From contig CAXXLF010000001.1 of the NCBI GenBank assembly GCA_963664015.2, positions 64,001 through 128,000 of the forward strand: a DNA stretch of 64,000 nucleotides, written 5' to 3'. Both the position numbers and the translations under genes were made by a program. Origin of the DNA: Candidatus Binatia bacterium (GTDB lineage: Bacteria > Desulfobacterota > Binatia > UBA9968 > CAXXLF01). The notes below the pieces were generated by a model. The model saw only the letters and a list, made by a program, of their open reading frames with translations. It was not told the DNA's origin and searched no databases. Positions 11,354-52,181 of this stretch are shown here, piece after piece (the stretch's first letter is position 1; every line of letters starts with the position of its first letter).

Positions 11354-11959
11354 ATGACCATCAAGCTATATGACTTTCCGAGTTCACCAAATTGCAAAAG
11401 AGTTAAGGTCGTCCTAGAGGAAAAGAAACTCGCCTACGACAAGGTGTTTATTGATCTTCCAAAAAGGGAGCAGAAACGACCGGAATATCTCAAGCTCAAC
11501 CCGTACGGGAAGGTACCAGTCATTGCCGACGGTGATAGGGTCCTTTACGAGTCGTGTATCATCAACGAATACCTGGAAGAGACCTATCCGGACCCACCCC
11601 TTATGCCTAAAAATCCTCACAAGAGGGGAAGGATTCGCATCCTGATCGATTACGGCATCAACCACTTCGGCGAGCCTTATCAAAAGGTTCGCAAGGAGAT
11701 GGGGAAGGATATCAAGGATCAAGATCAATCCGTTATCGAGGAAGGCAAAAAGACCTTGAAAGAGTTAATCCAACCTTTCGAGGATGAAATTAGAGACCAG
11801 GAGTATCTGGCCGGGGCTTTTTCTCTCCTGGACGCGGATTTGATCCCGCGCTTTGTTCGTTACGAGGAATGGGGTCTCATCCCCGATCCCTCGTTTCCCA
11901 AGCTGGGTCAGTGGTTGAAACGAATGAAAGAGCGCCCCTCGGTACGCGTAATACTGTAA
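11354..11959 (+). CDS. Glutathione S-transferase family protein
   Basis: SSPNCKRV, LNPYGKVP, LYESCIINEYLEE, FSLLD motifs. Confidence 0.92.
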   Translation: MTIKLYDFPSSPNCKRVKVVLEEKKLAYDKVFIDLPKREQKRPEYLKLNPYGKVPVIADGDRVLYESCIINEYLEETYPDPPLMPKNPHKRGRIRILIDYGINHFGEPYQKVRKEMGKDIKDQDQSVIEEGKKTLKELIQPFEDEIRDQEYLAGAFSLLDADLIPRFVRYEEWGLIPDPSFPKLGQWLKRMKERPSVRVIL

Positions 11960-12001
11960 TGGATAGCAAAGTATCAGACCGTCTTGATGAGGAGATTAAC
12001 T

Positions 12002-12550
12002 ATGAGCCAGGCTTCAGGAAAAATCGACCTCGCCAAGTTCAGAGAGGCCAATAAGGACCAGCGGGAGCGGGCCAAGAGGGGCCCCGGGGGGCACACGATT
12101 CAAACCCGCGCCGTGATCCGCCTGATCGAAAATCAACTAAAAGAGGCCAGGGTCGGAGATTATACCCTGCGGTGCGACGAGGCCAAGTCGCGAAAGGGAG
12201 GGGGAGAGGGGCCGTCGCCCCTGGCCTATTTCGTCGCTGCGACCGGATTTTGAATGTTCAGCCAACTGACGCGGTACGCGTCGGAACTGGACATTCAGAT
12301 CGATGATGCGGAAATGGATATCCGCATGAGCTACGACACACGGGGGAAGCAACACATTGCCGACGTCTCACCGGCCTGCCAGGAGGTGAATTACGTCTTC
12401 AAGATCAAGAGCCCCGCACCAACGTCCAAGATCACGGAGCTGGTAGAGATGATTGAGAAAGGGTGCCACACCATCAACACCCTGAAAGAGCCGATTCCTG
12501 TAAATGGTAAGCTGGCGCACAATGGGGAGACGATCGAAATAAAGGTCTGA
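12002..12550 (+). CDS. OsmC/Ohr-like peroxiredoxin family selenoprotein, 182 aa with predicted Sec84 at TGA 12251-12253
   Basis: ORFs 11984-12253 and 12254-12550 are one frame: CDE..GGGEGPSPLAYFVAATGF-U-MFSQ...EKGCHTINTL; the TGA falls at the OsmC catalytic Cys position; SECIS-like hairpin follows; RBS GAGGAG before ATG 12002. Confidence 0.85.
12251..12297 (+). promoter_or_regulatory. Bacterial SECIS-like element
   Basis: TGAATGTTCAG pairs with CTGGACATTCA (11 bp, one GU); CTGACGCG pairs with CGCGTCGG (8 bp, one GU); apical loop GTA/GGTAC about 20 nt after the UGA. Confidence 0.8.
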
Positions 12551-12551
12551 A

Positions 12552-12814
12552 GGCGCTTCGCGCCCTGAGCCAGTTGTCAGATGTCGGAGATCCGACGTCA
12601 GAGAAGAGACATAAGAGGTCGGAGAACCAAGATCAGAGTTCGGCTAAAAGGCAGGTAGCGTCAAGGTGCCAAGCTCGCAAAGAAAATTATTGTCCGATTC
12701 CTCCGACCTTGGCGTACTTTGTGTCTTTGCGCTCGCCCCATGGAGTATTGATCTCAAGGTAGGCCGAGTAAGCCCCAAAGGCTTTACTCCACGGGGCGAG
12801 CCCTCTTATTTCCG
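12552..12814. repeat. Cluster of REP-like palindromes
   Basis: GGCGCTTCGCGCC; GTCGGAGATCCGAC; CTTGGCGTACTTT 12708-12720; 16/17 inverted repeat GCTCGCCCCATGGAGTA (12731-12747) and TACTCCACGGGGCGAGC (12785-12801). Confidence 0.7.
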
Positions 12815-52104: not shown

Positions 52105-52181
52105 GGCGGTGTAGCTCAGATGGTTAGAGCACGCGGCTCATATCCGCGGCGTCGCAGGTTCGATTCCTGCCACCGCCACCA
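52105..52181 (+). tRNA. tRNA-Met (CAT), elongator type
   Basis: GGCGGTG acceptor stem with G1-C72 paired; TAGCTCAG..GG D-arm; CGCGG-CTCATAT-CCGCG anticodon arm; GGTTCGATTCC; encoded CCA. Confidence 0.95.

Follow-up and report, generated by a model that had tools for sequence, protein, structure and literature searches.

The window analysed here, a continuous stretch of 64,000 nucleotides, contains two short open reading frames (ORFs) on the forward strand, 11984-12253 (89 amino acids, TTG start) and 12254-12550 (98 amino acids), which lie in the same frame and whose sole interruption is a TGA codon at 12251-12253. The locus raises the question whether this TGA is a true stop or is read as selenocysteine (Sec) and, in the latter case, what kind of protein is made. 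In a preliminary description of the DNA, the two ORFs had been taken for one frame split only by TGA, with coordinates that match the ORF list exactly. Judged from its sequence and that of its relatives, the segment from 12002 to 12550 is a genuine selenoprotein gene and had been accurately described; selenium is presumably incorporated at codon 84 in vivo. The best explanation as a whole, and very probably the right one, is that UGA-84 would be decoded as Sec via a SECIS element, giving a Sec84/Cys155 redox protein of the NF041052 family.

The reading frame and its TGA codon

Translation from the ATG at 12002 yields 182 residues, in which the TGA is codon 84 (context ...AATGF-U-MFSQ...) and Cys155 lies within GCHTINTL, as had been predicted for the frame. 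Alignments with the orthologues begin at residue 1 of this 182-residue protein. The elements of the gene are the following:

11989..11994, forward strand: GAGGAG, putative Shine-Dalgarno-like motif read from the sequence, 7 nt ahead of the ATG at 12002
12002..12550, forward strand: complete selenoprotein gene, 182 codons plus TGA stop (12548-12550), OsmC-like, NCBIfam NF041052
12173..12175, forward strand: TGC, Cys58, additional Cys found throughout the clade (28/28 sequences) and replaced by a non-Cys residue in 3cje
12250..12298, forward strand: predicted bacterial SECIS hairpin, based on folding, conservation in relatives and published criteria
12251..12253, forward strand: in-frame TGA presumably read as selenocysteine, codon 84; the column is TGA or Cys in relatives and the contigs of 3 DNA runs agree
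12377..12379, forward strand: TGC, Cys126, in Sec forms only (Cys in 24/24 Sec sequences, Ala in 4/4 Cys homologues)
12464..12466, forward strand: TGC, Cys155, second conserved Cys of the OsmC family, putative resolving residue (28/28 sequences)

An assembly error had been named as one way in which the Sec reading could fail. Runs X1 and X3 have contigs without any difference from the window over positions 11900-12650; the assembly may have been built from them. A contig of the seawater-metagenome run X5 covers positions 11900-12280 and shows five differences in 381 nt, none of them at the TGA. The codon is thus kept in contigs of three DNA runs belonging to three studies, including one that differs elsewhere. 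From the RNA run X10, a seawater metatranscriptome, a single contig of 239 nt covers positions 12393-12631 only and is uninformative on transcription of the whole gene.

Matches to the family model NF041052 were detected in 61/61 related genomes, in 58 of them over the cut-off. By hand count, 98 of the 105 listed matches over the cut-off have an in-frame TGA and seven are without it. With the protein as query, matches at E <= 1e-30 were obtained in 77 of the 123 genomes that represent the order; the tallies of 61 and 123 genomes take in three unpublished genomes (G106, G075 and G090), on which none of the following conclusions depends. The protein query also retrieved 24 near-full-length orthologous loci with identities of 68-78% and one TGA each. 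The Sec set evaluated here consists of the window gene and 23 orthologues (67-78% identity), leaving out one locus of an unpublished genome (L057, G106) and a broken copy (L079). The latter, located at G004:C5:155866-156228, is a decayed orthologue in which a TAG and a TAA occur besides the Sec TGA and the N-terminal part is shifted.

In all 24 Sec-type sequences, the TGA occupies the identical column (GF-U-MFSQ). Four homologues with 45-47% identity (L080-L083) have TGC or TGT at this column, and all four PDB chains found (3cje, 2opl, 1lql and 9wo1) align a Cys to codon 84; in 3cje and 1lql, a Cys is also aligned to Cys155. Hence the column, for which an alignment of homologues had been suggested as a check, contains TGA or Cys but never Trp or another residue. 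Downstream of the TGA, the protein sequence is conserved as well, G154, C155, H156, T157 and N159 being invariant. Since residue 126 is Cys in the Sec forms and Ala in the Cys forms, this extra Cys goes along with selenium use.

Public sequence data mirror the split frame. A search of a large protein collection gave 42 homologues at E <= 1e-10, mostly of 100-116 amino acids and covering about half of the query, in line with the claim that standard pipelines would split the gene. The hits of the word-indexed homologue search were almost all half-length and included none of the full-length Cys homologues from the genome search, so that this search gives no measure of how rare full-length forms are.

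The SECIS hairpin and the selenocysteine machinery

RNAfold of positions 12240-12320 gave -31.3 kcal/mol (z = -3.96), and none of 200 dinucleotide shuffles was equally stable. The predicted hairpin possesses a lower stem of 12 bp (12250-12261/12287-12298), which takes in the UGA and has a U-G pair at its end, and an upper stem of 8 bp (12266-12273/12277-12284). Its apical loop is GUA (12274-12276), 20 nt past the A of UGA. The two tiers, the 8-bp upper stem and the G-initiated loop about 20 nt downstream had all been described before; only the lower stem, formerly given as 11 bp, has to be corrected to 12 bp. According to the legend of Fig. 2 in PMC13188914, the model of bacterial SECIS elements (bSECIS) comprises a loop of 3-9 nt, an upper stem of 4-16 bp, a G in the first two loop positions, a distance of 16-37 nt from the UGA and an MFE <= -7.5 kcal/mol. 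The comparison with the criteria in this legend was made by hand. With a loop of 3 nt (G first, then U), an upper stem of 8 bp, a spacing of 20 nt and an MFE of -27.7 to -31.3 kcal/mol, the hairpin lies within every one of the published limits, which agrees with the bacterial SECIS geometry ascribed to it. A scan of the whole window at Rfam gathering level revealed nothing at the hairpin. The only match of this level in the window is an ordinary tRNA gene at 52105-52178 on the forward strand (RF00005, 68 bits).

The hairpin is retained in the relatives that carry the TGA. Of the 20 pairs, 17-20 are present in every one of the 24 Sec sequences, compared to 7-16 in the four Cys forms, whose own RNA folds differ from the hairpin of the Sec forms. 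In the alignment, 90% of the cells are paired versus 22-41% after the 3' partners have been slid by one to three columns. Conservation is not uniform along the stems. The pairs of the UGA's G and A are unpaired in 14/24 and 13/24 orthologues, respectively, the bottom pair of the upper stem in 14/24, and in the window's hairpin, the three lower pairs showed no conservation across the 24 Sec sequences. With both UGA pairs and the lowest upper-stem pair missing from 13-14 of the 24 sequences, the conserved core amounts to approximately 8 + 7 bp.

Compensatory changes on both sides of a pair were found at none of the 20 pairs in the 24 Sec sequences. In a shuffle control, 423 of 500 shuffles reached the observed pairing, which is therefore not separated from the chance make-up of the columns; this control is uninformative because the hairpin columns are nearly invariant. 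At the codon level, codons 91-93 (CGG, TAC, GCG) are each represented by a single codon in 24/24 sequences, and wherever residue 90 is Thr (18 sequences), the codon is ACG. Invariant codons among the degenerate conserved ones amount to 3/11 inside the hairpin versus 1/105 elsewhere, and the ten 15-codon windows of highest codon conservation begin at codons 78-87. Given the lack of covariation and the uninformative shuffles, the structural support thus consists of conservation, the slid controls and the frozen synonymous sites. Of the conservation and covariation that had been proposed as a check, the former was found, as the hairpin is kept in all Sec orthologues and decays in the Cys forms, but compensatory changes were not (0/20).

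The genome (3.51 Mb in two contigs) encodes the complete machinery for Sec insertion. In profile searches, selA, selB and selD reached 606, 409 and 373 bits, respectively, and the tRNA-Sec 74 bits, each over the curated cut-off; ARAGORN called the latter a tRNA-SeC with anticodon TCA. All components for which a search had been advised, including the tRNA-Sec gene (selC), are accordingly present. The selD gene is a selenoprotein gene itself, with one TGA in the context AAG-U-AAK. Moreover, one OsmC-like Sec paralogue is situated about 14 kb past the tRNA-Sec. The respective loci are:

C2:1306534-1312057: selA, selB and selD, adjoining
C2:1322535-1322625: tRNA-Sec, about 10 kb downstream of selA/selB/selD
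C2:1336549-1336971, C2:687852-688274 and C2:1596931-1597344, reverse strand: three further OsmC-related paralogues

In the genome, all four paralogues agree in three features, namely a single TGA in an identical column, a C-terminal Cys and a hairpin downstream, whose loop is small and G-led in the three further paralogues. The best paralogue scores 162 bits on NF041052, above the window protein, while the fourth remains below the cut-off (81 bits).

It is highly improbable that the TGA is a true stop and that the locus represents a pseudogene, two small genes or an assembly error. This reading would account for the splitting of the frame under table 11 and for the automated public gene calls, most of which are half-length. 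It conflicts, however, with the TGA at the same column in 24/24 orthologues of different species, with the Cys in 4/4 homologues lacking the TGA, with the agreement of the contigs from three studies and with the truly broken copy L079, which looks different (TGA + TAG + TAA). The fixed TGA column, the Cys homologues and a downstream half conserved as protein, including the invariant G154-C155-H156-T157, together exclude a pseudogene. A genome-wide reassignment of TGA, e.g. to Trp or Gly and without any Sec, is virtually inconceivable. No evidence supporting such a reassignment was found, and it is at odds with the use of TGA as an ordinary stop elsewhere: TGA closes the gene 12002-12550 itself and 10 of the 26 long open frames in the window. 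It is also opposed by the homologues, which carry Cys at the column and not Trp or Gly, and by the complete Sec machinery with its tRNA-Sec of anticodon TCA. For decoding as Sec, the following course is proposed. UGA codon 84 would not be read as stop, and the hairpin extending from the UGA would act as a bacterial SECIS. This element would recruit SelB with the Sec-tRNA(Sec) made by the SelA and SelD proteins of the genome, whereupon Sec would be inserted.

Possible reaction of the protein and its genomic neighbourhood

The protein belongs to the OsmC fold. Pfam PF02566 (OsmC) matched residues 66-168 with 52.5 bits (gathering cut-off 27.5; profile positions 1-98 of 100). The match to NCBIfam NF041052, 'OsmC-related (seleno)protein' (OsmC_like_Se), reached 148.4 bits against a cut-off of 95 (E = 1.3e-43, model positions 2-144 of 144); in the six-frame search of the genome, the window gene scored 139.9 bits. 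By contrast, neither the OsmC model (TIGR03562) nor the Ohr model (TIGR03561) matched the protein at E <= 1, while E. coli OsmC, the positive control, gave 204 bits on TIGR03562. An AlphaFold2 model based on 28 sequences reached a mean pLDDT of 68, with residues 53-69 below 50 and a helix predicted at residues 10-26. The Foldseek matches listed for it at E <= 0.001 are all OsmC/Ohr structures (1qwi, 1nye, 1n2f, 1zb9, 6eb4 and others), with TM-scores of 0.4-0.6 and high rmsd, values that suffice for the fold but not for the distance between Sec84 and Cys155.

Passages of PMC5384416 and PMC8945050 describe Ohr and OsmC as Cys-based peroxidases that form dimers, carry a peroxidatic Cys, a resolving Cys, a catalytic Arg and a catalytic Glu, and are reduced by lipoyl proteins. 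The same passages distinguish a third, YhfA-like group, in which the two Cys are kept and the catalytic Arg and Glu are missing, and which is biochemically uncharacterised. For the family in the broad sense, a redox Cys pair about 60 residues apart is mentioned in PMC5384416, and a table in PMC9312934 files OsmC-like selenoproteins under COG1765/YhfA.

In the window protein and its relatives, Sec84 and Cys155, 71 residues apart, are invariant (28/28, U counted as C). Ten residues before Sec84, all 28 sequences have Leu74, where E. coli OsmC has Glu49; at position -9, the window protein has Ala and most others Gln, where E. coli OsmC has Glu50. In our reading, the Glu at position -10 is probably the catalytic one, as counted from the spacing in Xylella Ohr, for which we take the Cys to be Cys61. 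The Glu51 that enters this count is given in the abstract of PMC5962072. Residue 64 is Arg in 25 and Lys in 3 of the 28 sequences and lies 20 residues ahead of Sec84, just as R39 precedes Cys59 in E. coli OsmC; R64 may be the equivalent of R39, a correspondence of spacing in a region where the structure model has low confidence. Profile comparison with E. coli OsmC gave E = 0.29 over 23 columns, with Cys155 weakly aligned to Cys125 of OsmC, and with E. coli YhfA E = 0.0026 over 24 columns, single-sequence comparisons that are too weak to place catalytic residues. NF041052 matched E. coli YhfA weakly (21 bits) and E. coli OsmC not at all. Altogether, the window protein looks closest to the YhfA-like third group.

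Because neither the OsmC nor the Ohr model matched and Leu74 takes the position of Glu49, peroxidase activity is something that we infer. Of the OsmC-like peroxidase postulated in the preliminary description, the OsmC-like nature stands, whereas the term peroxidase goes beyond the absent TIGR03562 and TIGR03561 matches and the Leu in place of Glu. Hydroperoxide reduction would be the most likely reaction of a Sec84/Cys155 cycle, though the chances for and against it are balanced. Sec84 would occupy the first conserved, peroxidatic Cys position of the Ohr/OsmC fold and Cys155 the second, resolving one. The selenolate of Sec84 would attack a hydroperoxide or a similar oxidised substrate, and the resulting selenenic acid would react with Cys155 to form a selenenyl-sulfide. 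A thiol donor might then regenerate it; the candidates are a lipoyl protein, which serves Ohr/OsmC in this way, and a system linked to glutathione.

The gene directly upstream on the same strand is the following:

11354..11959, forward strand: glutathione S-transferase (GST; Pfam GST_N, GST_C), ending 42 nt before the selenoprotein start

Going by this spacing, the GST gene and the selenoprotein gene may be co-transcribed. More generally, the segment 9125-11959 on the forward strand, directly upstream of the selenoprotein gene, contains genes for the LigB and LigA subunits of a dioxygenase (4-nt overlap), an aldo/keto reductase (AKR) and the GST. At three of the other loci searched, a GST-like ORF is present near the orthologue, on the opposite side of the gene. 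Matches to AKR or vWA proteins near orthologues were obtained at none of the other loci searched, many of which are cut by contig ends; because of these ends, no operon link is claimed. On the reverse strand, the segment 12839-15976, convergent to the selenoprotein gene, codes for a vWA-domain protein (524 amino acids) and for an AAA ATPase of the MoxR type (Pfam bpMoxR, 192 bits). Presumably, this pairing is that of MoxR-vWA ternary systems.

A tentative alternative, which falls somewhat short of an even chance, is that the product is a Sec protein but not a peroxidase, i.e. a selenol/thiol oxidoreductase with an OsmC fold of the YhfA-like third group. Its substrate might be a protein disulfide, a persulfide or an electrophile passed on by the neighbouring GST or aldo-keto reductase. 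The failure of TIGR03562 and TIGR03561 at E <= 1 points in this direction, as do the leaning of NF041052 (21 bits) and of the profile comparison (E = 0.0026 against 0.29) towards YhfA rather than OsmC, Leu74 at the Glu position, the extra conserved Cys58 and the Sec-linked Cys126, and the GST and AKR genes upstream on the same strand. It is also consistent with the assignment of OsmC-like selenoproteins to COG1765/YhfA in the table of PMC9312934 and with the description of that group as uncharacterised in the passage of PMC8945050. On the other hand, both hallmark redox residues are at the family positions, 71 residues apart, and R64 precedes Sec84 by 20 residues like R39 and Cys59 of OsmC, a likeness of spacing only. 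The closest structure, 3cje, bears the title hydroperoxide resistance protein, which is a structural-genomics title rather than an assay result, and a passage of PMC5384416 mentions peroxidase activity of an Ohr-like enzyme that lacks conserved residues. Furthermore, the GST adjacency is not conserved, with GST-like matches at three other loci searched. It is conceivable, albeit unlikely, that the protein is a distinct selenoenzyme in which Sec works with a multi-Cys relay (N-terminal helix, Cys58 and Cys126) on another substrate or with another reductant, as one of four specialised Sec paralogues.

Significance and comparison with known families

The main value of this gene lies in annotation. 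Gene callers using table 11 halve it, and such halves abound in public protein collections; since these callers cut the gene in two, it is read-through that yields the correct 182-residue product. General knowledge of selenoproteins is unchanged by the gene. What it contributes is one well-supported example, accompanied by 23 orthologues, by Cys counterparts and by a SECIS that is conserved; this set could be used as a test case for SECIS predictors. It could likewise help in asking why selenium is used so often in the YhfA-like branch of the OsmC fold, which is uncharacterised.

The OsmC-like selenoprotein family is already known and the gene is a member of a curated family, because such proteins were reported in 2005 (PMC1088965) and the window protein passes the NF041052 model. 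The gene is thus not the 'hidden' selenoprotein it had been called, for the existing model accepts it with 148.4 bits against 95, whereas the statement that Sec-containing OsmC-like proteins have been described before is backed by the 2005 report. With NF041052, the window protein shares nearly the full length of the model, which also finds TGA-containing copies in relatives. What separates the window clade from the model are about 32 additional N-terminal residues, the invariant Cys58 and, in the Sec forms, Cys126.

According to the Sargasso Sea study by Zhang, Fomenko and Gladyshev (PMC1088965), OsmC-like selenoproteins (COG1765, PF02566, motif UxxT) were among 15 new families; they are listed again in PMC1976440, PMC9312934 and PMC13188914. 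That family and the window protein have in common the OsmC fold, Sec in place of the first Cys and a SECIS with a G in a small loop. They differ in the motif, which is U-M-F-S (UxxS) in the window protein; the comparison was made with the published motif. UxxT does occur in one paralogue of the same genome.

The same fold, with two redox residues at equivalent positions, is found in E. coli OsmC/Ohr. However, Sec replaces Cys at the first site of the window protein, which matches neither subfamily model and whose redox residues are 71 residues apart compared to 66 in E. coli OsmC (Cys59 and Cys125). The YhfA-like third group, represented by E. coli YhfA and by 3cje, 2opl and 1lql, includes the solved structures that match best by sequence (3cje, 4e-10). 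As in the window protein, the canonical Glu is absent from this group, and both Cys positions are common to 3cje and 1lql. Its members, though, use Cys and not Sec, and E. coli YhfA can be aligned with the window protein over only 24 columns.
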